DNA from: Minisyncoccia bacterium
GTDB taxonomy: Bacteria > Patescibacteriota > Minisyncoccia > Phycocordibacterales > DATDWN01
Length of the DNA: 64,000 nt
NCBI GenBank assembly: GCA_049297675.1
Contig: JBAQUS010000017.1
Span: forward strand, 7,456-71,455
Reading direction: 5' to 3'
In this document: positions 15,426 to 62,925 of the stretch, one piece after another
Numbering within the stretch: position 1 is the first letter of the stretch
Layout: each line of letters starts with the position of its first letter
Translations under genes and position numbers: made by a program
The notes under the pieces: generated by a model
What the model saw: only the letters and a program-made list of their open reading frames with translations
Databases searched by the model: none
Told to the model about the DNA's origin: nothing

Positions 15426-15809
15426 ATGATCCGTAAAACCGTCTTTACAATCTTGTTTTTTGGATGTATAGGCTGTAGCGAGATTGACACAGCTAAGTTT
15501 CGAGTTTCTGGGTTGAACAGGGACAGTCAAAGAAGGATTATCTTTGTGGTCGATGGACAAAACGTTGGCTCGGTTGTTGAACCTGGAGACACGCAATCAC
15601 CGCATGACATAAAGGTAGTATTCGACAAACCACTATGGTATGGTCTTGGACCGTCGTCCATTAAGACCGCTGACATATCACTCGGTGTTCGAGATGCTGA
15701 TACCCAAGTTGTCTTTATGGACGTAATAAGATGTCAGTTGGCGCAAGATTCGGTTACCAACTTTGTGTATAGCAGGGATGGAGGAGTTGATCGTCTCTAT
15801 TGTCGGTAG
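15426..15809 (+). CDS. hypothetical lipoprotein (127 aa), GC-elevated cassette with a GAGGAGG RBS
   Basis: Signal peptide plus lipobox (LFFGCIGC). Canonical SD. GC visibly higher than the flanks. Confidence 0.5.
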   Translation: MIRKTVFTILFFGCIGCSEIDTAKFRVSGLNRDSQRRIIFVVDGQNVGSVVEPGDTQSPHDIKVVFDKPLWYGLGPSSIKTADISLGVRDADTQVVFMDVIRCQLAQDSVTNFVYSRDGGVDRLYCR

Positions 15810-15844
15810 TAACTTGGAGGTCTAGCTATCAAATTTCGCGAGAT

Positions 15845-15880
15845 CGCGAGGCATAGCCTCAAAGCGCCTCGCGTTTTCGT
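15845..15880 (+). terminator. intrinsic terminator CGCGAGGC...GCCTCGCG followed by TTTT
   Basis: 8-bp GC stem followed by a T-run. Confidence 0.55.
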
Positions 15881-15951
15881 TTATATTAATTGGAAAACTT
15901 TTAATTCACTATTGCCTAATAGTTAAGAATTTGCTAAAGTGTCATTCACAC

Positions 15952-16668
15952 ATGATAAAAACAGAAAAAACAGGATTAGCTACAGGAGGCCTCGTTGAGG
16001 CTCTTTATTCTCATGGAGTTCATTTTGGTTTCATAAAGTCTAGAAGACATCCTTCAACCAAACCGTATATTTACGGTGTTAAGAACAAAATTGAGATCTT
16101 TGATTTAGAGAAAACTGGTAAGGCACTTGAGAGAGCTTTGAGTTTTATAGAGGAGGTTGCTTCAAAAAACGGCAAGATACTTTTTGTTAGTAGTAAAAAT
16201 GAAGCTAAAGAAGCAGTCTCTTCTATGGCTGAGAGTATTGGTGAACCATACGTTGCCGGTAGATTTATAGGTGGAACTATTACTAACTTTTCACAAATCA
16301 GGAAAAGAGTAGAGAAAATGGAGTCTCTTATTTCACAGAGAGAAAAAGGTGAGCTTTCAAAATACACAAAAAAGGAGAGGCTACTTATCGATAGAGAAAT
16401 TGATAAACTTAAAACTTTTTTCTCTGGTCTTTCGGTCATGAAAGCTCTTCCGCAGGCAGTTTTTATTGTTGATAGTAAAAAGGAATCTATAGCTGTAAAA
16501 GAGGCTCAAAAGGCGAATATACCCATTATTGCTATTTGCGGGACTGATAACAACTTAAACGAGGTGGAGTACCCTATACCCGCCAATGACGCAAGCAAAT
16601 CAAGTATAGAGTTTATACTAAAGAAAGTTGTAGAAAGTTTTAAAGCTGGACAGTTGAAGAAAGAGTAG
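15952..16668 (+). CDS. rpsB: 30S ribosomal protein S2
   Basis: GVHFGF...RRHP S2 N-terminal signature. ATG at 15952. Confidence 0.9.
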   Translation: MIKTEKTGLATGGLVEALYSHGVHFGFIKSRRHPSTKPYIYGVKNKIEIFDLEKTGKALERALSFIEEVASKNGKILFVSSKNEAKEAVSSMAESIGEPYVAGRFIGGTITNFSQIRKRVEKMESLISQREKGELSKYTKKERLLIDREIDKLKTFFSGLSVMKALPQAVFIVDSKKESIAVKEAQKANIPIIAICGTDNNLNEVEYPIPANDASKSSIEFILKKVVESFKAGQLKKE

Positions 16669-16747
16669 AATTGAAGTATGATGTAGGACGTACGTGGCAA
16701 AAAATCTGCTTCGAATATCTTAAACCTAACATTTTACATCTATCAAA

Positions 16748-17335
16748 ATGGTAATAACAACAGAACTTGTAAAAGAGTTACGAGACATTACTGGAGTCTC
16801 AATAATGCAATGTAAGAAAGCACTAGAGGAAGTCAACGGAGATTTGGAGAAAGCCAAGATGATTCTTCAGAAAAAAAGTGCTGATTCAGCCTTGAAAAAA
16901 AGTGGTAGAGTACTAGGAGCTGGAGTAGTTTCTTCTTATGTTCACTCAACTGGCTCAATCGGCACATTAGTTGAGCTTTTGTGCGAAACAGACTTTGTGG
17001 CAAAAAACGAGGAGTTCAAAACTCTGGCTAGGGATATCGCTATGCATGCCACTGCTACCAATCCTCAATTTCTAAAGTTAACAGATATAGATGAGCACTC
17101 AATGGGTTTGGCAAAAGAGATGTTCGAAAAGGAGGTGGAAGGGAAGTCAGGGGATATGAAAGAGAAGATTTTAGATGGGAAACTGGGTGCTTATTGGAAA
17201 GATAGAGTTCTTCTTGAGCAATCATTTATTAAAAATCCGGATTTAACTATTACAAATCTCATACAAAGTGCGACGCAAAAATTTGGCGAAAAAATAGAAC
17301 TGTCTCGCTTCACCAGGTTTTCTGTTTCACAATAA
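16748..17335 (+). CDS. tsf: elongation factor Ts (short form)
   Basis: TTELVKELRDITG...MQCKKAL UBA-like N-terminus. Follows rpsB. Confidence 0.9.
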   Translation: MVITTELVKELRDITGVSIMQCKKALEEVNGDLEKAKMILQKKSADSALKKSGRVLGAGVVSSYVHSTGSIGTLVELLCETDFVAKNEEFKTLARDIAMHATATNPQFLKLTDIDEHSMGLAKEMFEKEVEGKSGDMKEKILDGKLGAYWKDRVLLEQSFIKNPDLTITNLIQSATQKFGEKIELSRFTRFSVSQ

Positions 17336-17778
17336 TTTTATGATAATAACTATATTTTTAACATCCATGATTTTTTTAGTTTCAATGATATTTTCTAAGG
17401 CCATAGAGATAAAAACAGGTAATGCACATTTTATGTCTACACTATTTCAAAGATTTGATGGTAATGTTCATGTTTATTCTGACCTTTTATTTTCAAAATT
17501 TAAAAGATATAGGAAAATTTCAAACTTACTTTTTTTTGAATTTATACCCTCATTCTCTTTTGAAATATTGACTAGAATGAATGACTTTGTTTCTAAGAAA
17601 TACCATACAGCTGGCAACAATTTTCGTGGAAAAAAGGCTCTTCGGCATGATGGTTCAGTCTCTTTCTTTCTTAGTAGACTGTCCGAAGAAAAAATCAATT
17701 CAAGTGAGAGTAGAATTTAGTTTTCTTGAAAAAAGTGCTCAAGAATGTTAGATTATGTTTGTTCATTATAGATTTTTT

Positions 17779-17854
17779 GCCACCTTAGCTCAGTTGGTAG
17801 AGCGCCACTTTTGTAAAGTGGATGTCCCCAGTTCAAGCCTGGGAGGTGGCTCCA
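17779..17854 (+). tRNA. tRNA-Thr (anticodon UGU), CCA encoded
   Basis: Cloverleaf read by hand: 7-bp acceptor stem GCCACCT/AGGTGGC, anticodon stem CCACT/AGTGG, loop TTTGTAA, T-arm CCCAG-TTCAAGC-CTGGG. Confidence 0.85.
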
Positions 17855-17897
17855 GTTAAAAATCTCAGTGCATACTGGGATTTTTAAATAAGCTAAC

Positions 17898-19819: not shown

Positions 19820-19823
19820 TTAA

Positions 19824-20966
19824 CTACCTTACTTTAGCCCCGTAGACCTTAGTGGTTGTATCTTCCAACATTTTGTGTAAAGTGTCAACCTCCTCGTTGG
19901 TTAATGTTTTGTCGAGCGACCTATAGGTGATTCTATAAGCATAACTAATATTTCCTTCGCCGAATTTTTCAGCGTTCTCGTACTTATCTATTAGGCTAAC
20001 TTCCTCGACCATATCGGGAATAGTTTCTCTGACAATATCAAAATAATCGTTTGGCACAAAAGTGTTTTTTACTACAAAAGATATGTCACGAACTACAGGA
20101 GGAAATTTGGAAACCTCAACAAACTTTTGCCCGATCTTTAGCTGTTTAGTAACTCTAGGATCCTCTGACCAAAGTAAGCGAATGTCAGGCAAACTCATAG
20201 AGGCTATGGCAAGACGCTCCATTCCGAACCCGAAAGCCCAACCGTTGTAGCCTTCCAAACCAAAATTCGATAGTACAGATTTTCTTGGAAGTCCAGAGCC
20301 AAGCATCTCAATCCATTGGTTGTTTATAAATGCTTCCATCTCGAAGCTCGGGTCAGTGTAGGGGAATGTGTGGTCATAAAATCTAAATTCTACTCCCTCT
20401 CCAAAAACACTCTTGGCTACGTCAGTTAAAATAGCTTTAAGATCATCTGGTGTGGTGTCTTTTTTCTCGTCCGGAGCAAGGAAAAGTCCACCAATTTGAT
20501 GAAAGACATTCATATGACGAGAATCGATTTCGTCCTTTCTATAAACTTTCCCGTAGCAAATTGCTCCTATGCTCTCTTTCTTAAGAATCCTCTCTTTAAT
20601 CTCTGGAAGGTTTAAATAGTAATACCAAAAAACTGTATCATGGGTTCTAAGAACATTTTTGTCATCAACGTAGTAAGTATCAGATTTACTTCTGGCAGGG
20701 TGACCTTCAGGCATATTGAAAAGGTCAAAAAGTATATCAGTTGATATAATTTCAGGAATATTAATTATATCTAAACCGTCTAGACTTTTGACCTTAAGCG
20801 TTCTCTGTACAATCTCATTTATTGGACTTCCACAAGTTCTAGAGAGGTCAGGCATTGAGAGGTATTTTCTTATTCTCGTCGCCTCAATATCACTTCGTGT
20901 TTCAAATTTCTTCAAAACTTCCTCCTGCTTTTCCGAGGAAATAAGGTATTCCTTATGGTTGGACAT
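19824..20966 (-). CDS. pheS: phenylalanine--tRNA ligase alpha subunit
   Basis: GHPAR, LRTH, class II motif 2 KVYRKDEIDSRHMNVFHQIGGL, and motif 3 FGFGMERL. Confidence 0.8.
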   Translation of the reverse strand: MSNHKEYLISSEKQEEVLKKFETRSDIEATRIRKYLSMPDLSRTCGSPINEIVQRTLKVKSLDGLDIINIPEIISTDILFDLFNMPEGHPARSKSDTYYVDDKNVLRTHDTVFWYYYLNLPEIKERILKKESIGAICYGKVYRKDEIDSRHMNVFHQIGGLFLAPDEKKDTTPDDLKAILTDVAKSVFGEGVEFRFYDHTFPYTDPSFEMEAFINNQWIEMLGSGLPRKSVLSNFGLEGYNGWAFGFGMERLAIASMSLPDIRLLWSEDPRVTKQLKIGQKFVEVSKFPPVVRDISFVVKNTFVPNDYFDIVRETIPDMVEEVSLIDKYENAEKFGEGNISYAYRITYRSLDKTLTNEEVDTLHKMLEDTTTKVYGAKVR

Positions 20967-21020
20967 ATTTGAACTATACCAAAATCCTTCCCAAATTCCA
21001 ACATAATTATCTTTTTAATC

Positions 21021-21058: not shown

Positions 21059-21772
21059 ATGGCAAAAAGAAGGATAAATTTCTCATTAGATGAGTTCTAT
21101 CACTTGTATAATAGAGGAAACAGTAAGCAGAAAATATTTCTTGATGAACAGGATTATGATAGGTTTACCAAACTTCTTTTTCTCTGTAACACCATAAAAA
21201 GTATTAATTATAGGGATGATATCGTTGAAAAAGAAATTGATGCATGGGATTACGATAAAGGAGAAAGTATTGTTTCGATAGGAGCATGGGTTCTAATACC
21301 CAACCACTTTCATATACTTATAACAACACCCCCCACATCGGAAGTCGGGGAGGGGTCGATAAGTTTTTTTATGAAGAAGGTTTGTATTTCATACTCAAAG
21401 TACTTTAATAAAAAGTATGAAAGAGTAGGAGGTTTATTTGAGTCGAATTTTAAGTCTTCACACATAGATGATGATAATTATCTAAAATATATTTTTTCCT
21501 ACATTCACCTTAATCCAGTAAAAAAAGTTTTTCCCAACTGGAAAAATGATGGCATTTTGGATTATGAATTAACAAAAGAGTTTCTGAACAAATATGAGTA
21601 TAGTAGTTACACGGATTATATAAATATAAAAAGAAATCAAAGTAAAATTTTATCGATTGGAGAATTTCCAGACTACTTTTCTGATACTAAATTATTTAAG
21701 GATGAAATTTTTGATTGGCTATCATATACCCCTACTTCCGATGTAGGGGACAATGATGTAGGGGACAATTAG
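21059..21772 (+). CDS. REP-associated tyrosine transposase (RAYT), copy 2
   Basis: FYHLYNRG, AWVLIPNHFHIL and YIHLNPVK motifs. Divergent from copy 1. Confidence 0.8.
   Translation: MAKRRINFSLDEFYHLYNRGNSKQKIFLDEQDYDRFTKLLFLCNTIKSINYRDDIVEKEIDAWDYDKGESIVSIGAWVLIPNHFHILITTPPTSEVGEGSISFFMKKVCISYSKYFNKKYERVGGLFESNFKSSHIDDDNYLKYIFSYIHLNPVKKVFPNWKNDGILDYELTKEFLNKYEYSSYTDYINIKRNQSKILSIGEFPDYFSDTKLFKDEIFDWLSYTPTSDVGDNDVGDN
21329..21355. repeat. REP family 2-like sequence CCCCCCACATCGGAAGTCGGGGAGGGG, in frame inside RAYT-2 (encodes PPTSEVGEG)
   Basis: Shares the ACATCGGAAGT core with the flanking REPs. Confidence 0.6.
21729..21769. repeat. REP family 2 copy in inverse orientation (CCCCTACTTCCGATGTAGGGG) plus a 15-bp tandem duplication (GATGTAGGGGACAAT x2) forming the RAYT-2 C-terminus
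   Basis: Read directly. Encodes ...TPTSDVGDNDVGDN before the stop. Confidence 0.7.
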
Positions 21773-21880: not shown

Positions 21881-21907
21881 TGAAGGATTTTTGTGGTGAG
21901 CAATTTT

Positions 21908-21956
21908 AAATAAACAAAACCCCGCGCAACATCCGAGTGCGAAGCACGGGGTTTGT
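21908..21956 (-). terminator. intrinsic terminator on the minus strand (CCCCGTGC...GCGCGGGG then TTTTGTTTATTT)
   Basis: GC-rich hairpin plus a U-tract, immediately downstream of the minus-strand 79-aa gene pair. Confidence 0.55.
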
Positions 21957-21978
21957 TGGCGGGGTGGGGAGGAATGGA

Positions 21979-22218
21979 CTAATCCCTATACTGCTTCCTC
22001 CACTGGGTGAGCTCTTCTTCGGTGATGCCGAGTCTCGACATCCCGTTTTTGGGAAACTCACCGAGGTACTCATCGATGTCTTTGAGGGATGCGTACCCCA
22101 ATGACTGGTTGACTTCTCTCTCACGGAGTGTGTCGACCGCTCTTGGTCCAGTCACCATGACATCCGATGGCATTGGTCCGAACATCTGATTCGCCTTGCG
22201 TTGCCAGTAGTTCGACAT
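21979..22218 (-). CDS. hypothetical protein (79 aa), second gene of a GC-rich two-gene operon
   Basis: AAGGAGGAG RBS and ~50% GC, against a ~37% background. No recognisable domain. Confidence 0.5.
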   Translation of the reverse strand: MSNYWQRKANQMFGPMPSDVMVTGPRAVDTLREREVNQSLGYASLKDIDEYLGEFPKNGMSRLGITEEELTQWRKQYRD

Positions 22219-22251
22219 CTCTCCTCCTTTGGCTTTAGCCCTGTTATGTGG

Positions 22252-22491
22252 CTATAACTTGGCAATTCGATTGTAGCTTCGAACACAGCGACGGAGCGCG
22301 GATTCAGTGTACGCTTCATCTAAGCGATTGGGGAGACGAACAATGAACAGCTCTGCACCGTCCTTGTCATTAACCTTTGTTGCATCGAATTCCCGTGCCG
22401 TGTTGACTAGCCTGTCTTCTTCGAGAGGGAAGTCATTTTCTTCGATGATTACGAGGCCTGTTTCGAATTGTCCTGCATAACCTGGGCGCAT
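22252..22491 (-). CDS. hypothetical protein (79 aa), first gene of a GC-rich two-gene operon
   Basis: AAGGAGG RBS 4 nt from the ATG and a consensus promoter upstream. No recognisable domain. Confidence 0.5.
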   Translation of the reverse strand: MRPGYAGQFETGLVIIEENDFPLEEDRLVNTAREFDATKVNDKDGAELFIVRLPNRLDEAYTESALRRCVRSYNRIAKL

Positions 22492-22514
22492 GAAACCTCC
22501 TTTTTCTAACCGAC

Positions 22515-22543
22515 ATTCTATACTGTTTACATTAACTTGTCAA
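22515..22543 (-). promoter_or_regulatory. near-consensus sigma70 promoter TTGACA-N17-TAGAAT driving the 79-aa gene pair
   Basis: -35 at 22543..22538 and -10 at 22520..22515 on the minus strand. The same hexamers are used at 61781-61808. Confidence 0.55.
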
Positions 22544-22639
22544 GGGTAATTTTGTGGCTAGGAATATTGAATAAATGCTTGTTTGTGAGAGTAGAATTTG
22601 CTATAATTATCAGGTTAAAATGACAAAAAAATAATAAAA

Positions 22640-24727: not shown

Positions 24728-24942
24728 TTCTCAAAGTGGTGATGAGAGGGTTTTGAAGGGACTACGATGGCACCAATGAAATAACCAATGAGAGCTGGCA
24801 TAAAACCTGTGACTATACCAATCAGGATATAACCTAGACGCAAAATAGTAGGGTCCATATCGTAATACTCTCCGACACCTCCTATTACACCAAAAACAAC
24901 TTTGTTTGTGTTTGATTTGTAAATTCTTTTTGTGTTAGTCAT
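24724..24942 (-). CDS. PspC-domain membrane protein
   Basis: VFGVIGGVGEYYDMDPTILRLGYIL matches the PspC-domain signature. Confidence 0.75.
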   Translation of the reverse strand: MTNTKRIYKSNTNKVVFGVIGGVGEYYDMDPTILRLGYILIGIVTGFMPALIGYFIGAIVVPSKPSHHHFEN

Positions 24943-24963
24943 GATATTTATGTTAAATAATAA

Positions 24964-25182
24964 TTAAGCACTGACAGAAACTGGAATATTGTTTGCTGAC
25001 TTCATCTCATTTTTCTGTTTGTTGGTCTTTAGTGAAACTCCAAGTATCTCAACTCCAAGAACCTTACCATTTTTATCCAAATCTGCATTAACTAGACTCG
25101 AAAGATGAACAGTTTTTTTTACTGTTCCACTTTTTACTTTTATGTAAACAGCATCTGCTGTTTTGTCGTAATTAATTTTCAT
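24964..25182 (-). CDS. DUF2283-family protein (putative antitoxin-like partner)
   Basis: MKINYDKTADAVYIK N-terminus typical of DUF2283. Overlaps the upstream DUF4258 gene. Confidence 0.7.
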   Translation of the reverse strand: MKINYDKTADAVYIKVKSGTVKKTVHLSSLVNADLDKNGKVLGVEILGVSLKTNKQKNEMKSANNIPVSVSA

Positions 25183-25390
25183 AATATGCAGTTATTATTA
25201 TATAACTCGATCCCTGAATTTTGTATATCACATCCAGAACTTTGTTGCGTACAGCAATCTTTGCGGTAATCATACCATACCTGTCTACCTTATGCACTTG
25301 GGGTGATTTAATAGCTGTTTTCACATCACTTACAGAAACACCCCTTTCTAAAAAGCGATGTTTGGCATGATGAGTAAGAATGATCTTCAT
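25172..25390 (-). CDS. DUF4258-family protein (putative toxin-like partner)
   Basis: HAKHRFLERGVS motif typical of DUF4258. 72 aa. Confidence 0.7.
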   Translation of the reverse strand: MKIILTHHAKHRFLERGVSVSDVKTAIKSPQVHKVDRYGMITAKIAVRNKVLDVIYKIQGSSYIIITAYYEN

Positions 25391-26673: not shown

Positions 26674-26743
26674 TATTTAAAGAGCATTATATACTTGACA
26701 TATCAAGCATTTGATTTTAAGATAAATGTTGGAGGGGGTACCT

Positions 26744-26992
26744 ATGAGTTTTTCGCTTGGAAATCGAGAAAGCCTGCCAAAGTGCCGGACTTGCCAGATT
26801 CCGATTTGGCAAAAACAGGCACCAGAGCTTGATCAAAACTTGTGCCAGTCGTGTAATCTTTTTCTGACTGGTCTAAGAAAACTTGAGAGTTCTGAACTTG
26901 AGAGGCAACTCTTAAGTCGAGATTGGCAAGACGGACTCTTTGCTGTATTTTGTGAGGAATACAAAAGGAGAGGTCTGAGACTTCCACAGTAG
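26744..26992 (+). CDS. hypothetical zinc-ribbon protein (82 aa), GC-elevated cassette
   Basis: CRTC...CQSC Cys pairs, a GGAGGG RBS, and a TTGACA-N17-TAAGAT promoter upstream. Confidence 0.4.
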   Translation: MSFSLGNRESLPKCRTCQIPIWQKQAPELDQNLCQSCNLFLTGLRKLESSELERQLLSRDWQDGLFAVFCEEYKRRGLRLPQ

Positions 26993-27005
26993 TTCACATC
27001 CCGAA

Positions 27006-27052
27006 ACGCGGGGTCTGTGAGCCCCGCGTCGAGATTTACTCGGCGTTTTTTT
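27006..27052 (+). terminator. intrinsic terminator ACGCGGGG...CCCCGCGT plus T7 run
   Basis: Strong GC hairpin followed by TTTTTTT. The T-run overlaps the dnaE stop on the opposite strand. Confidence 0.55.
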
Positions 27053-30000
27053 ATTCCATCAGTCTAATTTTATCAATAAGTACAGACTTTTCACCGTTTC
27101 TAAGTGACACTGAGCCTTTTATAACCACACAATTCTCAACAGCAAACAGTCCACTACTTTCTTCTGTCAGTATTTTTGGAAAAGCTACGGCTTCGATCGA
27201 GTCCGATAAGTCTGAGACTTTCAAAAAATACATTTTCTCCCCCTTTTTGGTCATGACAGGACGAAGTTCCTCTATGATTCCCCCAAAAACAACTTCATCT
27301 TTGTCTTTTTTACTTTCTTTTATTTTTTTTATATTTAAATTTTTATTTTCAAGTTTATCTTTGTAACTATCAAGAGGATGACCTGAAATATAAAGTCCTA
27401 AAAGTTCTTTCTCCCACATGAGTTTGTCTCCCTGGGTAGTTTTTCCATTAAGTTCGAGTTTTATTTCAGTGGCTTTTATTTCTGTACCAAAGAAAAGAGA
27501 AGTTTGGTCTCCCATGTCCTGTCTTTCTTCTCTACTAAACTGAAGCATCTTATCAATATTTGATAGAAGCATTGATCGATCATCGCTTCCACCAGCTAGG
27601 GAGTCCATCGCTCCAGCCTTTATGAGAGATTCAAGAGATTTTTTGTTCAAATTTTTATCTTTTACTCTTCTTAGAAAATCTGAAAGGGAAGTGAACTCTC
27701 CGTTTTTCTTTCTTTCCTCGACAATTGAGTGAGCGATACCTTCGCCAAAGTTTTTGATGGTTGAAAGTCCGAATCTAATAGTGTCCGGGATAGAAGTATG
27801 AAGTTCGATGTTCGATTTATTCACGCCGAAACCCTCAAATGATTTGTTTACATCTGGTGGTAGAACCGGAATTCCCATTCTTTTACATTCGTTTATAACC
27901 TCCGCCACCGTCTCTATATTTCCGGATTCTGCAGTCAGAACTGCTGACATATATATTGCAGGGAAGTTGGCCTTCATGTAAGCGGTCTGGTATGCAACTT
28001 TACCGTAGCTAACAGCGTGGGCCATATTAAAACCATAACCTTGGAAGGGCTCAAATAAATTCCAAAGTTCTTCTGCTTTTTTCTCTGACATGCCACCGTG
28101 TTTCTGACTACCCTCAACGAACTTTATATGTTGCTTCTTCATTTCTTCTGGGATTTTCTTTCCGACAGCTTTTCGAAATTTATCTACTTCTCCCCAGTCG
28201 TATCCTGCCACCTCAATAGCAGTGTAAAGAAGGTCGTCTTGGTAAACAAGTACCCCAAATGTTTTGTCTAGAAAGTTCTTCATTTTTGGATGCAAATACA
28301 CAATTGGTTTTTTCCCGTGTTTTCTGGCTATGTACTCGTTTATGTTATCCATCGGTCCTGGACGGTAAAGTGCTACCATAACGTTTATGTCATGAATGAC
28401 AGTTGGTTTTAGGTCTTTCAAGGCTCTAGTCATACCGTCGCCGTTTAATTGGAAAAGTCCTATTGTTTCTCCGCGAGCCAGCATGTCAAAAGTCTTTTTA
28501 TCATCCACAGGAACATTTTCAATATCAATTTTAATTCCCTCTATTTTTTCCACTCTTTTGACACTATCTGCCAAAATAGAAAGATTACGAATCCCAAGAA
28601 AGTCGAATTTCAGTAATCCCACGCCATCCTCACCGACTGAATGCATATCATATTGTGTGATGATCTTATGCTGTCCGTTTTCTCCACCTTTTGTATCGTA
28701 TTGAAGTGGTACATAGTCGATAAGTGGTGTTGGTGCCATAACCACTCCCGCGGCATGAACTGATATATGCCTTGCACATCCTTCGATTTTCTTAGCCATA
28801 TCAATAATTTTTTTGACATCAGGCTCTTCTTTATATCTTCGAGAAAGTTCTGGCTCTTCTTTCAGTGCTCTGTCAATTGTCATGGGGAAGCCTTGCTTAC
28901 CAAGAGGAATAAGCTTGGATATTGAGTCTCCGAGACTGTATGGAAATCCTAAAGCACGTGTGACATCTCGAACTGCCCCTCTAGCGGCCATTGTTCCAAA
29001 TGTTCCTATTTGTGCCACTTTGTCTTCACCATATTTTTTCTTGGCATATTCAATAACCTCATCGCGTCTATTATCTGCAAAGTCCATATCGATGTCCGGT
29101 GCTGATGGTCTGTAAGGATTCAGAAATCTCTCAAATGGCAAGTTGTATTCAAGTGGGTTTACGTTTGTAATTCCAGATAGGAAAGTAACTAAAGATCCAG
29201 CCACAGAGCCTCTAATAGTTGTTAAAATTCCGTTTTCATGAGCAAAATTTAAAAGATCGGAAACCACTAGAAAGTATGGCGCATAACCCTTATCTTTAAT
29301 TATTTTGAGCTCGTATTCCATTCTCTCCACAATCTCTTTAGTTTTTTCCAGCTTTCTCTTTTTTATTCCTTCCACGGTAATTCTTCGGAGTTCATCATCG
29401 TAAGAAAGTCCACTTTCCACAACGTAGTTGGGTAGCGACCATTTGCCTATCTCGATTTCCAGGTTACATCTCTCAACTATTTTCTCAATATTTTCTATTG
29501 CCTCTGGTATGTTTTTAAAAAATTCTAAAGCATCACTTTGGCTAATGAACGAAAAATTTTCTTCTTTAAATTCCAACTTCTCATCGTTTTGAGATGCAAC
29601 TGCTATGAGAGTTTGCCTAGCTTCACGATCCTCAGGGTGGAGATAATAAACATCATGTGATGCAACCAGAGGCGTGTTGGTTTTTTTTGCAAACTCAACA
29701 ACTTTTTGCATTGTTTCCTCGTGCCCCTTCATTTCTGGATGATGTGTAATTTCGAGAAAAAAATTTTCTTCACTATTCTTATTAAAAACGCTTTTATACC
29801 AATCCAATCTTTCTAGTGCTTGGTTCTGGTTTGCAAGTTTAATAGACAGAACGATATCACTCGAAAAAGATGGGGCAATAGCGATAAGCCCATCAGAGTA
29901 CTTTTCTAGTAGTTCGTTATCAATTCTCGGCTTATAATAAAAGCCTTCGAGGTGAGCATAAGTTACGAGCTTTATGAGATTTTTGTATCCAATATCATTT

Positions 30001-30278
30001 TTGGCTAGAAGGACCAGGCGATATCTTTCTTTATCAATTGACTGCTTATCTTTTCTTCCTCTTATTGCTACATAAGCGTCGATTCCAATAATTGGTTTTA
30101 CACCCTTTTTCTTACATTGAATGTAAAACTCAATTGCTCCATAGAGATTACAGTTATCCGTCAAAGCCAAGGCAGACATGTCATTTTTCTTTGCCTCGTC
30201 AATCAAATCTTTAATTTTCGGCAAGGCATTAAGAAGAGAGTAGTGGCTATGTGTATGGAGATGGGTAAATTTTGACAT
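27051..30278 (-). CDS. dnaE: DNA polymerase III alpha subunit
   Basis: PHP domain (HLHTHSHYS) and polymerase core motifs. Start placed at MSKFTHLHTHS, which has a TATAAT 6 nt upstream. Confidence 0.95.
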   Translation of the reverse strand: MSKFTHLHTHSHYSLLNALPKIKDLIDEAKKNDMSALALTDNCNLYGAIEFYIQCKKKGVKPIIGIDAYVAIRGRKDKQSIDKERYRLVLLAKNDIGYKNLIKLVTYAHLEGFYYKPRIDNELLEKYSDGLIAIAPSFSSDIVLSIKLANQNQALERLDWYKSVFNKNSEENFFLEITHHPEMKGHEETMQKVVEFAKKTNTPLVASHDVYYLHPEDREARQTLIAVASQNDEKLEFKEENFSFISQSDALEFFKNIPEAIENIEKIVERCNLEIEIGKWSLPNYVVESGLSYDDELRRITVEGIKKRKLEKTKEIVERMEYELKIIKDKGYAPYFLVVSDLLNFAHENGILTTIRGSVAGSLVTFLSGITNVNPLEYNLPFERFLNPYRPSAPDIDMDFADNRRDEVIEYAKKKYGEDKVAQIGTFGTMAARGAVRDVTRALGFPYSLGDSISKLIPLGKQGFPMTIDRALKEEPELSRRYKEEPDVKKIIDMAKKIEGCARHISVHAAGVVMAPTPLIDYVPLQYDTKGGENGQHKIITQYDMHSVGEDGVGLLKFDFLGIRNLSILADSVKRVEKIEGIKIDIENVPVDDKKTFDMLARGETIGLFQLNGDGMTRALKDLKPTVIHDINVMVALYRPGPMDNINEYIARKHGKKPIVYLHPKMKNFLDKTFGVLVYQDDLLYTAIEVAGYDWGEVDKFRKAVGKKIPEEMKKQHIKFVEGSQKHGGMSEKKAEELWNLFEPFQGYGFNMAHAVSYGKVAYQTAYMKANFPAIYMSAVLTAESGNIETVAEVINECKRMGIPVLPPDVNKSFEGFGVNKSNIELHTSIPDTIRFGLSTIKNFGEGIAHSIVEERKKNGEFTSLSDFLRRVKDKNLNKKSLESLIKAGAMDSLAGGSDDRSMLLSNIDKMLQFSREERQDMGDQTSLFFGTEIKATEIKLELNGKTTQGDKLMWEKELLGLYISGHPLDSYKDKLENKNLNIKKIKESKKDKDEVVFGGIIEELRPVMTKKGEKMYFLKVSDLSDSIEAVAFPKILTEESSGLFAVENCVVIKGSVSLRNGEKSVLIDKIRLME

Positions 30279-30369
30279 AAAAACATTATAGCATTTCAAA
30301 TTGTTTTCCTTCCTGATTATACTGTTGACTATAAGTAATTTTATTGTTATTTTGTTCTCGGAGGTTTGC

Positions 30370-30819
30370 ATGAGTTTACCGATGGTCGAAGGAAGAGAGC
30401 TTCAATGGTCGTCACTCACAGATTTTGAAAGGGCGTGTCTCGTCCAAATCGGTGAGGAGGTGGTGAGTCCGAATCCAAACACGCACCTCATCAAGATTCT
30501 CTGTGATGCGGTGCGTCTTGCGAGGCAGTGTGCGGACAATCCACCACTCATTTCCATCGAGGATGATCAAACGAGGCTCAGGAAAATCGCACTTAAGCAG
30601 ATAACCAGCGTAGTCAACAAATATCGACGGAAGGACGGATCTGGTCGTCTCCTTCCAGAGTATGATTGGGGAGGTCAGAGAAACTTCCTCATCCGTGACA
30701 TTTTAGAGACTGCTCTGAATGTTGCATTCTGCATTGAGGGTGCGTCAACCGGATTTCATTCCCGAGATTCCAATCGGGTTTATCATGACAGTCCAGTCAA
30801 CAACGCCCCTCGGGGCTAA
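30370..30819 (+). CDS. hypothetical protein (149 aa), GC-elevated cassette divergent from dnaE
   Basis: GGAGG RBS, a TTGACT-N17-TATTTT promoter, and a GGGGTCAC...GTGACCCC hairpin downstream. No recognised domain. Confidence 0.4.
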   Translation: MSLPMVEGRELQWSSLTDFERACLVQIGEEVVSPNPNTHLIKILCDAVRLARQCADNPPLISIEDDQTRLRKIALKQITSVVNKYRRKDGSGRLLPEYDWGGQRNFLIRDILETALNVAFCIEGASTGFHSRDSNRVYHDSPVNNAPRG

Positions 30820-30877
30820 ACACTGGGGTCACCGCCAAAAGCGAGTGACCCCTCACCATATGTGTTAAAATTTTGTT

Positions 30878-31519
30878 ATGAATTATGTTGTCGGTATAGA
30901 TGAAGTTGGAAGGGGACCACTGGCTGGGCCTGTCACTGTCTGTCTGGTTTGTTGCGAAGATAGATTATATAGAAAGTTAAAGCAAAATAGAAGTTTACCC
31001 AAATTAGGTCAAGACAGCAAAAAAATCTCAGAAAAAAATCGCCAGAAATACTCCTTGACCCTGAAGTCCCTAATGTCAAAGACGGTCTTTGACATTTCCA
31101 AAGGGGACCCCTTTGGGAATGAGATTGGAATGTGGTATGTAGTTAATCATGTTTCAAACAGAGTAATTGACCAAAAGGGAATTTCTTTTGCGATTGAAGG
31201 GGCTATTGCCACAGGAATTAAGGGGTTAAATTTAGATGCAAAAAATTGCATAATTTTGCTTGACGGAGGATTAAGAGTGCCGAAAAATTTTAAACAGAAA
31301 ACAATAATAAAGGGCGACGAGAGGGAAAAAATAATTAGCTGGGCTTCGATTTTGGCAAAAGTTTCGAGGGATGATCTGATGATAAATTTGAGTAGGAAGT
31401 ACTCATTTTATGGTTTTGATAAACACAAAGGCTATGGCACCAAACACCACAGAGAAATGATCCTGGAATTTGGCTTAAGCAAAATTCACCGCAAAACCTT
31501 CTGCAAAAAATTGATTTAG
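30878..31519 (+). CDS. rnhB: ribonuclease HII
   Basis: GIDEVGRGPLAGPV active-site motif. Confidence 0.9.
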   Translation: MNYVVGIDEVGRGPLAGPVTVCLVCCEDRLYRKLKQNRSLPKLGQDSKKISEKNRQKYSLTLKSLMSKTVFDISKGDPFGNEIGMWYVVNHVSNRVIDQKGISFAIEGAIATGIKGLNLDAKNCIILLDGGLRVPKNFKQKTIIKGDEREKIISWASILAKVSRDDLMINLSRKYSFYGFDKHKGYGTKHHREMILEFGLSKIHRKTFCKKLI

Positions 31520-31605
31520 TGTTGTCAATTTGCATTTATTAATTGTCTTGAAATCTTATTTTACAAGAATGTTAATTTATGATAATGTCAAATCGGAGGT
31601 AGGTC

Positions 31606-32046
31606 ATGTCCCACTTTTCCGGAGCAGTAATCTGGGAGGAGCGGGATGGAGAAATCTACCTGCTCATTCAAGAGTTTGAGACAACTAACCCTCGTTTTCG
31701 AATAAAGAAAGGAAAAAAGTTTCCTGGTGGGAGAAGTGTACCTGGAGAGTCTCCAGAACAGACCCTACACAGGGAGCTTCTCGAGGAGTTGTGGGTTTGT
31801 GTGAGTGGTGAGATGGTACAGATTGCTGTGGTTCCTTCAAACAGTAATCACACAATGTATTTTTTTCTAATCCATATCTCACAACTTAAGGGGGACATTT
31901 GGAATGAGGTTGTCGATGATGGACAGTCGAAAATTCAGCCTCTAGTTTCAGTAAGAGCTAATAAAGTCGGAAGTCTACCAGGCTTTCTTGATTCACATCA
32001 ACCTGCCTTGTTGGTTACACTTCGTCGCTTTGGACTCGTGGGATAG
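31606..32046 (+). CDS. Nudix hydrolase (GC-elevated cassette)
   Basis: Nudix box GGRSVPGESPEQTLHRELLEELWV and a GGAGG RBS. Confidence 0.7.
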   Translation: MSHFSGAVIWEERDGEIYLLIQEFETTNPRFRIKKGKKFPGGRSVPGESPEQTLHRELLEELWVCVSGEMVQIAVVPSNSNHTMYFFLIHISQLKGDIWNEVVDDGQSKIQPLVSVRANKVGSLPGFLDSHQPALLVTLRRFGLVG

Positions 32047-32159
32047 GACTCTCAATCGTTCTATTCCACGAGAAATACCCCGACACTGTCGTGGTTTTTT
32101 TATAGATAAACTGTTCTAAATTTGTAATTTCTTAGCAAACATGTTAGTCTTTTCACACT

Positions 32160-32378
32160 ATGGTAGTACGAATGCGACATACAAAAAGTCAGCGAAACAG
32201 AACGAGATCACATCATCGTTTAGACAAACCTGCCATAACTTTGGACAAAAACTCAAACGTTCCACATCTTCGTCACAGAGCTTCACTCGTGACAGGACAA
32301 TACAAAGGCAGAATGGTCATTGATGTTCAAGCTAAGATTGCTAAGAAAGCTAAGAAGAATAAAAAAGAAGGTAGATAA
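32160..32378 (+). CDS. rpmF: 50S ribosomal protein L32
   Basis: MVVRMRHTKSQRNRTRSHHRL...PHLRHR L32 signature. Confidence 0.8.
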   Translation: MVVRMRHTKSQRNRTRSHHRLDKPAITLDKNSNVPHLRHRASLVTGQYKGRMVIDVQAKIAKKAKKNKKEGR

Positions 32379-32479
32379 GAGGAATAGTACATAAATAGAT
32401 AGGATTTGGTTTTGGGGACTATGCAAATTTTTTGTTATTTGATATCCTGTAACTAGTTACTAAATGCTAGACACAAAAA

Positions 32480-33370: not shown

Positions 33371-33460
33371 TCGCGATACGAATCTACGAATACATACGAA
33401 TAGTCAATGCTCTCACAAGTAGAGAAAAGACAAATATTCGCATTATTCGCATAAATTCGT
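33371..33460. repeat. intergenic CGAAT-array element, copy 3
   Basis: ACGAAT x3 at 9-10 bp phase, then ATTCGCATTATTCGCATAAATTCGTA. Confidence 0.65.
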
Positions 33461-33481
33461 ATATTGGCATCGGTACCATTT

Positions 33482-34171: not shown

Positions 34172-34243
34172 CGCCAAGGGAAATCATACTCTTTTCCTAG
34201 AACGTGCTTTTTCCGTTATGGTAAATTTTGCTATACTTAATAT

Positions 34244-37637: not shown

Positions 37638-37670
37638 ATGTGATAAGATAGGAAATAGAAGGGGGTGGGT

Positions 37671-38033
37671 ATGTGTATTATCACAGCTATCGAGTGCGAA
37701 GTCTGCAACGACCCAATCATTGCAGTTGAACCTAGAGAAGAAAAAGTTGTAGTTACAATACTGTGTTTCAGGTGTCTGACTTTGTTAACCTACTCGATCG
37801 ACGAGTTGGCTAAATTGAACAAGGTCAGGTGCGGGAATATGAAATGCAGAAATGTAGTCATAACTACGCACAGAAAGAGTGATGAAGTAATTATCACTCT
37901 TGAATGCTCGAGTTGCCCGAATATCTCTAGTTTCTCACTTGACGGCCTGCAAAGATCGGTCGGACTAAGGTCTGATTACGACTGCATTGATCAGGCAGAA
38001 ATTGTCTACCAGATTAGCCATCTCGTCTACTAG
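37671..38033 (+). CDS. hypothetical double zinc-ribbon protein (~120 aa), GC-elevated
   Basis: Four CxxC pairs (CEVC, CFRC, CGNMKC, CSSC). G-rich RBS 5 nt upstream. Confidence 0.4.
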   Translation: MCIITAIECEVCNDPIIAVEPREEKVVVTILCFRCLTLLTYSIDELAKLNKVRCGNMKCRNVVITTHRKSDEVIITLECSSCPNISSFSLDGLQRSVGLRSDYDCIDQAEIVYQISHLVY

Positions 38034-38152
38034 GAGTCGAAGTGCTGGTGTTTCTTGAGGACCCCGCGATTGCATCAATGCATCAAAGGGTCCGTCTTTA
38101 TATATAAAAATAAATAACTAAACCACAAAACTATCTAAGTATGCTTAATGTA

Positions 38153-41136: not shown

Positions 41137-41165
41137 TTGACAATGGATTTGTGTGGTGATACAAT
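41137..41165 (+). promoter_or_regulatory. sigma70-like promoter TTGACA-N17-TACAAT inside the rpsP-trmD insert
   Basis: Hexamers and spacing read directly. Confidence 0.4.
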
Positions 41166-41214
41166 GGATAGCGGAACAACCCAAGCTGGTGCTAAGTGCA
41201 CCGAGGAGGATGGA

Positions 41215-41400
41215 ATGAACTGCAAAGGTGAAATCATGACCGGCGGTGAAGTGGCCAGTGTGTTTGCATTCTCGTTTGCCTTGCTGGTGGTCGGAGTACT
41301 CGTCTTCGGGCAGGTGCCGATTGCCCAGGCAATCGAGACAGGCTGGGGCTTCAGTGCCGCCCAGCCCATTCTCAAACTCAAAATTGTGTGGGGAGGGTGA
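41215..41400 (+). CDS. hypothetical small membrane protein (61 aa), GC-rich
   Basis: GAGGAGG RBS and one TM helix. ORF-track frame 41101..41400 trimmed to this ATG. Confidence 0.35.
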   Translation: MNCKGEIMTGGEVASVFAFSFALLVVGVLVFGQVPIAQAIETGWGFSAAQPILKLKIVWGG

Positions 41401-41401
41401 G

Positions 41402-41542
41402 ATGCCAAAAACCTTCTGGCTTTGTCTCTCGTTCATTCTCGTCACGGTTGCTGCCGCAGTGGTCTTTATCTCTTACGAGGTGAAGTACGAGCACAACAAC
41501 CCCGATCGGCCAATCACTCCCATCGCCTTTCGAAGGGCGTGA
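41402..41542 (+). CDS. hypothetical small membrane protein (46 aa), GC-rich
   Basis: GGGGAGGG RBS overlapping the upstream stop, and one TM helix. Confidence 0.3.
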   Translation: MPKTFWLCLSFILVTVAAAVVFISYEVKYEHNNPDRPITPIAFRRA

Positions 41543-41639
41543 GAATTCATGAATGCCGGAGGTGAGGTCTTAGACCACGCCTCCGGTTCGTCGTATATAC
41601 AATTTCATGCATTTGTGATATAAATCAATAGGAGGTAAC

Positions 41640-41747
41640 ATGACCACTATTGCTTTTCTTCTCTTACTTAGTCGATTGAAGATTGTACGGAAATTCATGG
41701 CGTTCTGGAGGCTACTCACTGATCTAGAGAAAAGTGCTGGTCTCTAA
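41640..41747 (+). CDS. possible micro-ORF (35 aa) with an AGGAGG RBS
   Basis: RBS-ATG spacing is ideal. Followed by the perfect hairpin CGAGGAGGAC-ATAA-GTCCTCCTCG (41748-41771). Confidence 0.2.
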   Translation: MTTIAFLLLLSRLKIVRKFMAFWRLLTDLEKSAGL

Positions 41748-41785
41748 CGAGGAGGACATAAGTCCTCCTCGAACTATTTAATATT

Positions 41786-58456: not shown

Positions 58457-58534
58457 AATGTAGGTTAAAGTTTTATCTGAAAACTTTAAATCTTTACCTT
58501 ATCAACTTTATAACTTTATACTTTTAACTACAAT

Positions 58535-61780: not shown

Positions 61781-61808
61781 TTGACAAAAAAAATAACAGT
61801 GCTAGAAT
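61781..61808 (+). promoter_or_regulatory. near-consensus sigma70 promoter TTGACA-N16-TAGAAT
   Basis: Hexamers read directly. AT-rich context just upstream of a GC-rich gene. Confidence 0.55.
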
Positions 61809-61822
61809 ACATATGGAACAGA

Positions 61823-61843
61823 TTGATCGCATTCCGCGATCAA
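61823..61843. promoter_or_regulatory. palindromic operator-like site TTGATCGC-ATTCC-GCGATCAA between the -10 element and the RBS
   Basis: 8-bp perfect arms, positioned at about +15 to +35 of the predicted transcript. Confidence 0.5.
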
Positions 61844-61855
61844 AGGAGGATTCGG

Positions 61856-62506
61856 ATGGCTACCAAAGCGACTGTCAACGAGACCACCGTGCGCCAGGCC
61901 TTTGTGGACTACGCACGTGAGGCGACCCTTGCCGTCGGCAAGGACGGAGTACACCCTCGGTTTGTCGGGTTTTACATCGTTCACGAGGTCACCGATCTCG
62001 TGAATGTAGCGAAGCTCTCATACAAGGAGGGGCGCTTCGATGAGGCATTCGAGAAGATCACCAGTGCGAGGAAGTGGCTTCTCGGTGGTCAGCGCAAGTA
62101 CGTGCTGAGTTCGGTCGAGAAGTACTTCGAGGCTCGTCTCGAGGATCTACGATACTCCGAGCTCGAGCAGGATATCCTCGACGGCGTCAACTCGAAGATG
62201 AGGGAATTCGAGTCAGCTCTCGTTGCCCTCAAGGGTGGCAATGCCAGCCTCGAAGAAGTGACCGTCATGTATTGGGTGCTCAACGATGCAATCGAGAATG
62301 CACCCAAGCTCCAGGCAGAGCGCGACGAGCATCGTCGCAAGCTCGCCGACGAGGATCGTTCCCGCAAGCAACGCGAGAAGATGCTCGCCAAGAAGGCACG
62401 CGAGGCCGAAGAGGCAGAGAAGAGCCGTCAGGCTCAGATCGAAGCCAACGCTCGCTGGCGACAGGAGCGTGAGAGCTTCGTCGACGAGCTCTTCGCGGGG
62501 CTCTAG
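61856..62506 (+). CDS. hypothetical protein (216 aa), strongly GC-rich (~58% by eye), with a charged coiled-coil-like C-terminus
   Basis: AAGGAGG RBS 6 nt before the ATG. Codon usage is dominated by GAG, CTC and CGC, unlike the backbone. No recognised domain. Confidence 0.55.
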   Translation: MATKATVNETTVRQAFVDYAREATLAVGKDGVHPRFVGFYIVHEVTDLVNVAKLSYKEGRFDEAFEKITSARKWLLGGQRKYVLSSVEKYFEARLEDLRYSELEQDILDGVNSKMREFESALVALKGGNASLEEVTVMYWVLNDAIENAPKLQAERDEHRRKLADEDRSRKQREKMLAKKAREAEEAEKSRQAQIEANARWRQERESFVDELFAGL

Positions 62507-62534
62507 TACACAAGGTCGGCAAGGCCGACGAAGT

Positions 62535-62567
62535 CCGGAGAGGACAGCAAACTCTCCGGGCTTTTTT
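62535..62567 (+). terminator. intrinsic terminator CCGGAGAG...CTCTCCGG followed by GCTTTTTT
   Basis: 8-bp stem plus a T6 run. A second hairpin, GTCGGC-AAG-GCCGAC, sits just upstream. Confidence 0.6.
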
Positions 62568-62624
62568 AGTACAAAAATTTTATTTGTGATATTATTACGT
62601 TAGAAATCTTAGAGAGGAGTAAGG

Positions 62625-62756
62625 ATGTCACAGAGGACAAACACTACTATACCTTTCTCGTTAGGGTTCTTCGCCGTTTCATCCGTCTTTGTTGCGGGGG
62701 CAACATTAGTAGCACGTGGGCTAGTGATTGTTCTCAGTCAGTACTTCAACTTCTAG
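62625..62756 (+). CDS. hypothetical micro-membrane protein (43 aa)
   Basis: GAGGAG RBS and one TM helix. GC-elevated. Confidence 0.3.
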   Translation: MSQRTNTTIPFSLGFFAVSSVFVAGATLVARGLVIVLSQYFNF

Positions 62757-62766
62757 CGAGGTAAAG

Positions 62767-62925
62767 ATGGAAAAAAAGAAAGAAGTAATATGTAGTCCGG
62801 TTTGCGATAGTCGCAACATCGGTCCGTACTACTCAACAGGCTACAACATCTGCCGGAAATGCGGGAAACTTCTTGATGAGATCTTGCTCCCCCCAGAAGG
62901 GTCAGAAAGGTTGGTAAAAAAGTAA
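62767..62925 (+). CDS. hypothetical zinc-ribbon micro-protein (52 aa)
   Basis: CSPVC...CRKC Cys pairs, a GAGG RBS, and a terminator downstream. Confidence 0.35.
   Translation: MEKKKEVICSPVCDSRNIGPYYSTGYNICRKCGKLLDEILLPPEGSERLVKK

Follow-up and report, generated by a model that had tools for sequence, protein, structure and literature searches.

Autonomous extra genes, known as morons, lie between the conserved genes of lambdoid phages, and acquired genes of atypical composition in bacteria drift towards the composition of their host, a process termed amelioration. Bacteria also vary in how translation is initiated: Mycobacterium, Streptomyces and Deinococcus mix leaderless mRNAs with mRNAs led by a Shine-Dalgarno (SD) sequence, and the genomes of Bacteroidota are SD-poor, with a few ribosomal-protein genes that keep an SD for autoregulation and with a different promoter type. 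The Candidate Phyla Radiation (CPR), or Patescibacteria, makes up a large and mainly uncultured share of bacterial diversity, and its ribosomes are reduced. Here we analyse 64,000 nucleotides (nt) of the genome of a Minisyncoccia bacterium of this group (assembly GCA_049297675.1, contig JBAQUS010000017.1, positions 7,456 to 71,455 of the forward strand; hereafter the window), where a dozen small, GC-elevated gene units, the cassettes, stand between the operons of a core-gene backbone.

We propose that the chromosome has two layers, a core without SD sequences and a turnover pool of SD-led, GC-rich, moron-like units, some imported and some resident, and we regard this as the probable explanation of the data. 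That initiation mode, base composition and accessory status coincide so strictly in a CPR genome seems to be new. In the searchable literature we found no paper describing leaderless core genes in Parcubacteria, nor any description of a core/accessory split in translation initiation in that group.

Results

Strong SD sequences separate the cassettes from the backbone

An earlier note on this DNA, made from its letters alone, had claimed two initiation regimes, with backbone genes lacking an SD and GC-elevated small open reading frames (ORFs) led by canonical ones, and had proposed a per-gene comparison of SD energy and of GC content at third codon positions (GC3). Sets of 55 backbone ORFs and 15 cassette ORFs, the latter in 12 GC-elevated units, were curated; some backbone starts came from NCBI gene calls, and the dnaE start was set to the ATG at 30278, as the longest-ORF start assumed before (30371) is wrong. 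SD strength was scored as the duplex energy over positions -20 to -3 against ACCUCCUUA, taken as the putative anti-SD sequence.

The two sets proved disjoint in SD energy (Mann-Whitney p=4e-9). Values ran from -7.7 to -12.9 kcal/mol in the cassettes (median -11.6, n=15) and from -6.8 to +2.8 kcal/mol in the backbone (median +0.4, n=55), so that a strong SD precedes 15/15 cassette ORFs and 0/55 backbone ORFs. Separation by GC content was almost complete (0.41-0.59 versus 0.18-0.43), and median GC3 was 0.51 in the cassettes, where it spreads from 0.39 to 0.73, versus 0.31 in the backbone (p=7e-9). GC3 was not raised in ribosomal-protein and other highly expressed genes. Start regions (-20 to +40) also fold more stably in the cassettes, with a median of -10.1 versus -4.2 kcal/mol (p=7e-7). 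The two regimes claimed from the letters were thus borne out, and they map perfectly onto composition. What needs trimming is the word canonical: all 15 SDs are strong, but that of ORF 37671 is AGGGGGTG with a G-U wobble, and those of ORFs 62625 (GGAG) and 62767 (GAGGT) are weaker.

A census of the motif gave the same picture. The two strands of the window hold 119 GGAGG pentamers, and in only 12 cases does an ATG that opens an ORF follow at 4-8 nt. Each of these belongs to a listed cassette, which makes the link between SD and cassette independent of the list in the earlier note. A GGAGG-N5-ATG at 8488, inside the bL25 gene, was rejected as a false start: the ORF is longer, the Pfam match sets in at its residue 4, and it has its own TGaTATACT-N7-ATG. 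The start context GGAGGTAGG(C/T)CATG does occur at both 31606 and 45619, as had been noticed, and the two units have nothing else in common.

The region 12400-13083 also carries many GGTGG/GGAGG runs, on the opposite strand. It is the GC-rich, repetitive 3' end of an 829-amino-acid (aa) PQQ-dehydrogenase-like gene (10594-13083) with a GC skew of -0.28, and is not a cassette.

Leaderless-type starts of operon-first backbone genes

In operon-first backbone genes, exactly 6 nt separate the box TGnTAnnnT from the start codon downstream. The motif TGNTANNNT-N6-ATG occurs 10 times versus 2.4 expected, a count reached in 0/100 shuffles, and six of the ten matches are the following gene starts:

2121..2138, + strand: leaderless-type start of rpiB (ATG 2136), TGGTACAAT-N6-ATG
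6715..6732, - strand: leaderless-type start of gene 5725-6717, TGATATAAT-N6-ATG
7497..7514, + strand: leaderless-type start of fba (ATG 7512), TGGTACAAT-N6-ATG
20964..20981, - strand: leaderless-type start of gene 19824-20966, TGGTATAGT-N6-ATG
30276..30293, - strand: leaderless-type start of dnaE (ATG 30278), TGCTATAAT-N6-ATG
30863..30880, + strand: leaderless-type start of rnhB (ATG 30878), TGTTAAAAT-N6-ATG

Two genes with GTG starts, at 34244 and 42460, have this box as well. The -10-like boxes noticed earlier just before dnaE, rpiB and fba belong to this enriched motif. A -10 element whose end lies about 5-9 nt ahead of the start codon is expected of leaderless genes, and this is the arrangement found; with the box 6 nt from the start codon, the predicted mRNA would begin at or beside the AUG. 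Operon-first core genes are thus probably transcribed into leaderless mRNAs, to judge by transcription starts predicted from the promoter sequence.

The gene at 34244-35257, whose start is TGcTATACT-N6-GTG and so also of leaderless type, is an AT-rich accessory gene encoding a protein with RhuM-family and Fic/DOC domains.

Architecture of the cassette units

The 15 cassette ORFs are grouped into 12 predicted transcription units, which occupy 11 junctions of the backbone operons:

15331..15885, + strand: unit 1, promoter TTGACG-18-TAGTAT (15331-15360), SD GAGGAGG (15414); ORF 15426-15809, 127 aa, lipoprotein-like signal peptide; hairpin and T run at 15861-15885
21915..22545, - strand: unit 2, two genes, promoter TTGACA-17-TAGAAT (22543-22515); ORFs 22252-22491 and 21979-22218, 79 aa each, AAGGAGG before each; terminator hairpin 21954-21917
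26695..27053, + strand: unit 3, promoter TTGACA-17-TAAGAT, SD GGAGGGGG; ORF 26744-26992, 82 aa, CxxC zinc-ribbon-like; terminator 27000-27053
30325..30853, + strand: unit 4, promoter TTGACT-17-TATTTT, SD GGAGG 6 nt past the -10 box; ORF 30370-30819, 149 aa, divergent from the dnaE start (30278); hairpin 30825-30852 without T run
31560..32101, + strand: unit 5, promoter TTTACA-N-TGaTAATGT, SD GGAGGT; NUDIX ORF 31606-32046, 146 aa; terminator 32078-32101
37641..38101, + strand: unit 6, -10 box TGaTAAGAT overlapping the smc stop codon, SD AGGGGGTG; ORF 37671-38033, 120 aa, two CxxC pairs twice; hairpin 38059-38101
41137..41588, + strand: unit 7, promoter TTGACA-17-TACAAT (TG-extended), leader of about 45 nt; small membrane ORFs 41215-41400 (61 aa) and 41402-41542 (46 aa), GGAGG each; hairpin 41555-41588
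41616..41780, + strand: unit 8, -10 box TGaTATAAA, SD AGGAGGT; ORF 41640-41747, 35 aa; terminator 41748-41771 with T-rich tail
45593..46030, + strand: unit 9, -10 box TGgTATAAA, SD GGAGGT 6 nt downstream; ORF 45619-45984, 121 aa; strong 3' hairpin (-24 kcal/mol) without T run
47380..47998, + strand: unit 10, promoter TTTACA-17-TAGGAT, SD GGAGGG; ORF 47439-47951, 170 aa, predicted all-helical, family found in Acidobacteria; terminator with 12-bp stem 47962-47990
61781..62567, + strand: unit 11, promoter TTGACA-16-TAGAAT (TG-extended), leader of about 45 nt, SD AAGGAGG; ORF 61856-62506, 216 aa, GC 0.585, GC3 0.73; terminator 62535-62567
62587..62982, + strand: unit 12, -10 box TGaTATTAT; ORFs 62625-62756 (43 aa, membrane, SD GGAG) and 62767-62925 (52 aa, CxxC zinc-ribbon-like, SD GAGGT); terminator 62932-62982

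A -10 box is present in all 12 units, and about half of the boxes are TGn-extended like those of the backbone. Most cassettes had been said to carry a TTGACA-like -35 at 16-17 bp and to end in a GC hairpin terminator; we find a good -35 hexamer in about seven of the 12, at 16-18 bp, while the 3' GC hairpin is present in every unit, followed by a T run in about eight. Between the -10 box and the GGAGG that follows it there are 5-45 nt, which predicts leadered cassette mRNAs. The operon-internal ORFs 41402, 62767 and 22218 each have their own SD, and all 15 ORFs are intact.

Along the units, mean GC rises from 0.30 (-60 to -21) to 0.46 (-20 to -1) and 0.47 (ORF), reaches 0.54 in the first 50 nt of the 3' region and falls to 0.33 beyond. 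Because the step starts at the SD, the distinct block extends from SD to hairpin, with a promoter native in both type and composition. The description of the cassettes as bearing foreign expression signals accordingly fails for their promoters, which are AT-rich and often of the TGn-extended type of the backbone; only the translation signal, and perhaps the terminator, differs.

The cassettes encode one NUDIX hydrolase, one lipoprotein-like protein, four small membrane proteins and, from their translations, three CxxC zinc-ribbon-like proteins. Searches of Pfam, PHROGs and PADLOC with 10 cassette proteins returned the NUDIX domain only, plus a weak match of the NUDIX protein to the candidate defence family PDC-S07, and assigned no family to the remaining ORFs. 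An Rfam scan of the window found one tRNA only, which argues that the GC-rich blocks are not known RNAs. In the annotation of this metagenome-assembled genome (MAG), ORFs 22252-22491, 26744-26992, 37671-38033, 41215-41542 and 62767-62925 have no NCBI protein record; some of them occur only in Logan gene calls, and three are missing from the protein collection. SD-led small genes thus appear to be under-annotated in the host genome.

Unit 2 is bracketed by a 26-nt imperfect direct repeat (81%; 21889-21914 and 22550-22575) that encloses its terminator and promoter; the repeat may have arisen as a scar of insertion or by duplication of a promoter segment. Between cassette 37671 and the rnr end, the AT-rich spacer holds a 48-bp perfect palindrome (TACTCATACACTTAACTTATGCTA and its complement, 38153-38200). 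Upstream of cassette 45619 lies an intergenic stretch of about 300 nt (45322-45618) with nested inverted repeats, one pair with perfect arms of 18 nt (45364/45448) and one with arms of 33 nt (45322/45503). The stretch matches nothing in Rfam and might encode a small RNA or represent a miniature mobile element. Three copies of a 21-bp perfect palindrome, TGTGGAAGACCGTCTTCCACA, were counted in the window versus 0 expected (6755-6775, 7455-7475 and 41100-41120). All copies are intergenic and beside promoters, and could be an operator or a bidirectional terminator.

Cassettes turn over at conserved junctions

The cassettes are accessory. In one relative (L004) the prfA/rpsB junction, which holds unit 1 in the window, and the dnaE/rnhB and rnhB/rpmF junctions are closed to 40-90 bp, and other relatives carry different small ORFs between the 19824 gene and gyrB, gyrB and thrS, thrS and dnaE, and dnaE and rnhB. 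These replacement ORFs have GC raised by 0.05 to 0.18 and are mostly SD-led; apart from the NUDIX gene, the junction ORFs of relatives had no detectable homology to the cassettes of the window. The atypical composition of the cassettes is therefore accompanied by a patchy distribution among relatives, as in genomic islets.

When the 16 closest loci are pooled, genes with an SD have a higher GC deviation than the others (median +0.033 versus -0.003, p=3e-7), and an SD precedes 50% of genes whose GC deviation is at least 0.07 versus 13% of all others. Paceibacteria loci at a greater distance have few SDs (about 4%), and these show no link to GC. Downstream of the window in the same genome (L089), two more GC-rich SD-led ORFs were found on the - strand (822-1115 and 1233-1556; GC 0.53 and 0.50; 97 and 107 aa). 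The recurrence of the pattern in relatives' loci indicates a property of the sub-clade and not of one assembly.

Conservation of the cassette SD

Orthologues of the NUDIX unit that are 57% identical in amino acids, with saturated synonymous divergence (dS), keep the -35, the TGnTAATGT box and the GGAGGT invariant, while the bases between SD and ATG and the far-upstream region differ; GGAGG is retained in the window, L091 and L092 alike. An SD-like motif is present in 6/6 NUDIX units at this junction, although the proteins are 27-57% identical (92% in L091). Similarly, the 216-aa ORF 61856 and its relative in L086 (41% identity) retain GGAGG and promoter within a diverged leader. Two more distant relatives (L016, L030) have a strong SD on gyrB itself. 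Retention of the SD in saturated orthologues, while nearby leader bases change, favours function; we infer that the cassette SDs are probably functional and that this sub-lineage still uses an anti-SD.

Origins of individual cassettes

Deep homologue searches covered four of the 15 cassette ORFs, namely 47439, 30370, 61856 and the NUDIX ORF. About 1,500 homologues of ORF 47439 were found at 55-63% identity, in a family with 75% mean column identity of which the window protein is an outlier. Identity is 55-59% to members on Mb-size contigs of 67-69% GC; the contigs reach 3.4 Mb, and two of the members are named Vicinamibacterales. At the one homologue locus examined (69% GC), the neighbours are typical of a free-living bacterium, and GGAGG stands 4 nt before the ATG, as in the window. 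There is thus good sequence evidence that ORF 47439 was imported with its SD included. Its structure model (predicted local distance difference test score 70) is all-helical and gave no significant PDB match.

ORF 30370 has 138 representative relatives, mostly through an N-terminal domain of about 55 residues; their amino-acid composition is that of GC-rich genomes, and one is fused to a Lar-like restriction-alleviation domain. The family alignment matched one viral contig (62% GC). These matches are suggestive of an affinity to a distant GC-rich or viral source. Viral scans with the single sequences of ORFs 61856 and 30370 gave no match, nor did metagenome scans with ORF 22218 and the 61856 alignment.

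The other two ORFs are different, their relatives having been found only in CPR-like contigs. For ORF 61856 a single relative was found, on the AT-rich contig L086, upstream of the same uvrD-like gene as in the window. Its TTGACA/TGCTAGrAT promoter can be aligned between the two, and both have the GGAGG and the terminator; the neighbouring uvrD proteins are 60% identical, with saturated synonymous sites. GC3 of the family is 0.73 in the window and 0.70 in L086, versus about 0.23-0.33 in the flanks. This could result from the exchange of entire units among Paceibacteria, from selection at synonymous sites or from biased gene conversion.

The NUDIX gene lies between rnhB and rpmF in the window, L091 (92% identity), L092 (57%), L028 (28%), L026 and L016. 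It is GC-elevated in all six genomes, by 0.04 to 0.18, and is absent from L004 and L005. Judging by their synteny, the NUDIX and 216-aa units are not recent imports but residents of the lineage. Across 31500-34200, identity between the window and L091 is 90-96% in NUDIX-rpmF, 68-83% in the nusB-like gene and 91-96% in the 5' half of rnc, a mosaic that points to active homologous recombination between related lineages. The mosaic also explains the low dS of the NUDIX gene (0.25 versus 0.6-1.2 in its neighbours); synonymous-site selection was rejected as its cause because the high-identity tract spans rpmF and part of rnc.

An exact-sequence look-up of 10 cassette proteins returned only MAGs of the host species, and no copy at least 90% identical outside it. 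Repeated acquisition from SD-using donors, one of the two origins proposed in the earlier note, is supported for ORF 47439 and, more tentatively, for ORF 30370, whose affinities fit it, and runs against the residence of the NUDIX and 216-aa units.

Host chromosome and neighbouring genes

An exact-protein look-up matched the window to contig JBAQRY010000038.1 (80,475 bp) of assembly GCA_049296155.1, also a Minisyncoccia bacterium MAG. A scan of species-representative genomes with GyrB returned Patescibacteria only, the nearest relatives being Candidatus Zambryskibacteria and Paceibacteria at 84-86% identity, and backbone gene order is tightly conserved with these groups. The host chromosome is, on this evidence, that of a Paceibacteria/Zambryskibacteria-like member of the Patescibacteria. 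The gene names assigned from the letters were right wherever tested, and we confirmed gap, fba, gyrB, dnaE, smc, rnr, thrS, tsf, rpiB, rpsB, prfA, bL25, rpoB/C, dnaG, rpoD, trmD and one S24/LexA-like gene. Several proteins, among them SMC (750 aa) and ThrRS (426 aa), are short forms, as expected of a reduced genome. At 24724-25390 (- strand) there are three tandem paralogous 72-aa ORFs, AT-rich and SD-less, which are kept in relatives.

Two paralogous, AT-rich and SD-less genes for Y1 IS200/RAYT-like transposases (PF01797), at 21059-21772 (+) and 63175-63795 (-), adjoin unit 2 and units 11-12. The first is accompanied by hairpins containing cctacatcggaagtagg at about 21030 and 21855, and the second by GCCAAGGGGCACCCTTGGC hairpins at 62990, 63053 and 63828. 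We considered the cassettes as transposon cargo and rejected this, as they lie outside the hairpins.

Discussion

In the explanation that we favour, the core would be inherited vertically and expressed without SD. Operon-first core genes would use a TGn-extended -10 promoter 6 nt from the start codon, yielding leaderless mRNA, and operon-internal core genes would start in AU-rich, weakly structured contexts. The 12 autonomous, moron-like units at operon boundaries would each combine a native-type, AT-rich promoter with a leader whose GGAGG-type SD stands 4-8 nt ahead of the ATG, followed by a GC-rich ORF that ends in a GC hairpin. Such units would turn over fast, so that in relatives the junctions are empty or hold unrelated GC-rich SD-led ORFs. 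For some, the source may have been bacteria or phages of higher GC that use SDs, the SD travelling inside the transferred block, and others may be long resident. The coupling of GC and SD may be functional as well as historical: the stabler fold of GC-rich start regions would make a leaderless or unstructured route unlikely for the cassettes, and only copies with a strong SD may be expressed and retained. This explanation needs a ribosome that still carries the CCUCC anti-SD. Unit anatomy, the statistics, synteny and indels, SD conservation and the homologies are what the sequences show; transcription starts, translation, anti-SD presence, and the direction and timing of transfer we infer.

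Several observations weigh against this explanation. Just 48% of Parcubacteria have the anti-SD motif CCTCCT according to Tsurumaki et al. 2022 (PMC9297842), and neither the window nor the related loci compared yielded a 16S 3' end. A synonymous shuffle for avoidance of internal SD-like motifs gave z of about -1 in a small sample. GC3 of about 0.70 persists in two lineages of the 61856 family, which import followed by decay to host composition does not predict. Most cassettes are ORFans without a traceable donor, and no integrase or recombination site was found that would account for insertion of the units.

The cassettes might instead be native and long resident, their high GC and SD actively maintained and not traces of import. 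We consider this unlikely, though it deserves attention. Selection might act on mRNA structure or stability or favour a separate channel of SD-dependent expression, and GC-biased gene conversion might act where junctions are prone to recombination. Such residence would suit the syntenic, always GC-elevated NUDIX gene, the orthologous promoter, GGAGG and high GC3 of the 216-aa unit, the confinement of both families to CPR-like contigs and the active recombination seen against L091. It is harder to square with the clear presence of the 47439 family in non-CPR bacteria, with the lack of the NUDIX unit in the sister genomes L004 and L005, with unrelated cassettes at one junction in different genomes, with a GC3 spread that looks like a spread of ages, and with the ordinary GC3 of ribosomal-protein and highly expressed genes. 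If instead the SDs were non-functional relics, the anti-SD having been lost and the cassettes being recent and poorly expressed or silent, one could understand the frequent loss of the motif in Parcubacteria, the absence of SD use in core genes, the insignificant avoidance of internal SD-like motifs and the failure of the NCBI pipeline to annotate several cassette ORFs. We hold this to be improbable, given SDs at working distance in synonymously saturated orthologues whose neighbouring leader has changed, conserved promoters, 15/15 intact ORFs with operon-internal ones bearing their own SD, and no sign of very recent import in the form of a copy at least 90% identical outside the species.

The other origin proposed in the earlier note, a single exogenous source such as one donor genome or a scattered mobile element, appears very improbable. 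Uniform unit architecture, the occurrence of GGAGGTAGGYCATG in two units and the IS200-like Y1 transposase genes beside two clusters speak for it. They are outweighed by the lack of nucleotide or protein similarity between any two units, the GC3 range of 0.39-0.73, differing affinities (one Acidobacteria-type, one phage-type domain, two CPR-only), the occupation of 11 separate junctions and the position of the cassettes outside the transposon hairpins. Assembly or binning error, with GC-rich fragments spliced into a CPR contig, is a natural concern for a short-read MAG with compositionally foreign cassettes and contig breaks near some of them. We regard its likelihood as negligible: independent assemblies, two NCBI MAGs and Logan contigs of two runs, contain the same sequence (99.4-100% identity), each unit continues without a break from an AT-rich promoter of native type, and MAGs of unrelated studies carry like units at the same junctions.

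More speculatively, and with doubt prevailing, the two-layer organization might reflect an SD-dependent channel reserved for fast-turnover "chromosomal morons", the core being leaderless or SD-independent and the GC of the cassettes actively maintained, with mRNA-structure selection and GC-biased conversion at recombination-prone junctions as candidate forces. Such a channel would give accessory and core genes built-in separate regulation. Should the pattern hold genome-wide, it would explain missed gene calls, such as the cassette ORFs lacking in the NCBI annotation, and would supply a simple sequence rule, SD plus elevated GC, by which accessory or imported genes can be distinguished from the core. 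It would also bear on the real extent of anti-SD loss in Parcubacteria and would offer a natural test of whether GC-rich genes need an SD in an SD-independent host.

Compared with known systems, the cassettes resemble each of several in part. An integron-type origin was rejected, as no sequence is common to any two units and each has its own promoter; unlike integron cassettes, they share no attC-type site. Loss of the anti-SD in Parcubacteria (PMC9297842) concerns the same broad lineage and offers a ready reason for an SD-less core, but that work deals with the rRNA motif only, and the conserved SDs described here argue that the anti-SD is still used. Bacteroidota likewise initiate independently of SDs across the genome and keep rare strong SDs for a small, special set of genes; here, however, the SDs belong to ORFan cassettes with fast turnover, and the promoters are of a sigma-70-like type.

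With ameliorating islets the units share atypical GC and codon use and a patchy distribution, and the nearest relatives of ORF 47439 are in a distant phylum. They differ in being GC-richer than the host and of single-gene size, in having no integrase or tRNA target, and in that at least two of them stay GC-rich across deep divergence. Phage morons are similar in comprising few small ORFs of odd composition at syntenic junctions, present or absent among relatives, and in having their own promoter and terminator, features that sequence prediction places around the ORFs here too. Yet morons lie within phages or prophages, whereas the neighbours here are housekeeping genes (gyrB, dnaE, rpoBC, rpoD, smc) syntenic across Paceibacteria; there are no phage structural or integration genes, PHROGs searches with 10 cassette proteins gave no phage match except for NUDIX, and initiation mode differs as well. 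Like bacteria with mixed leaderless and SD-led mRNAs, this chromosome has one set of genes with the -10 box beside the start codon and another with SD-led, leadered mRNAs. In those bacteria both classes hold core genes, many of them with an SD, whereas here the split follows core versus accessory status (0/55 versus 15/15) together with composition.

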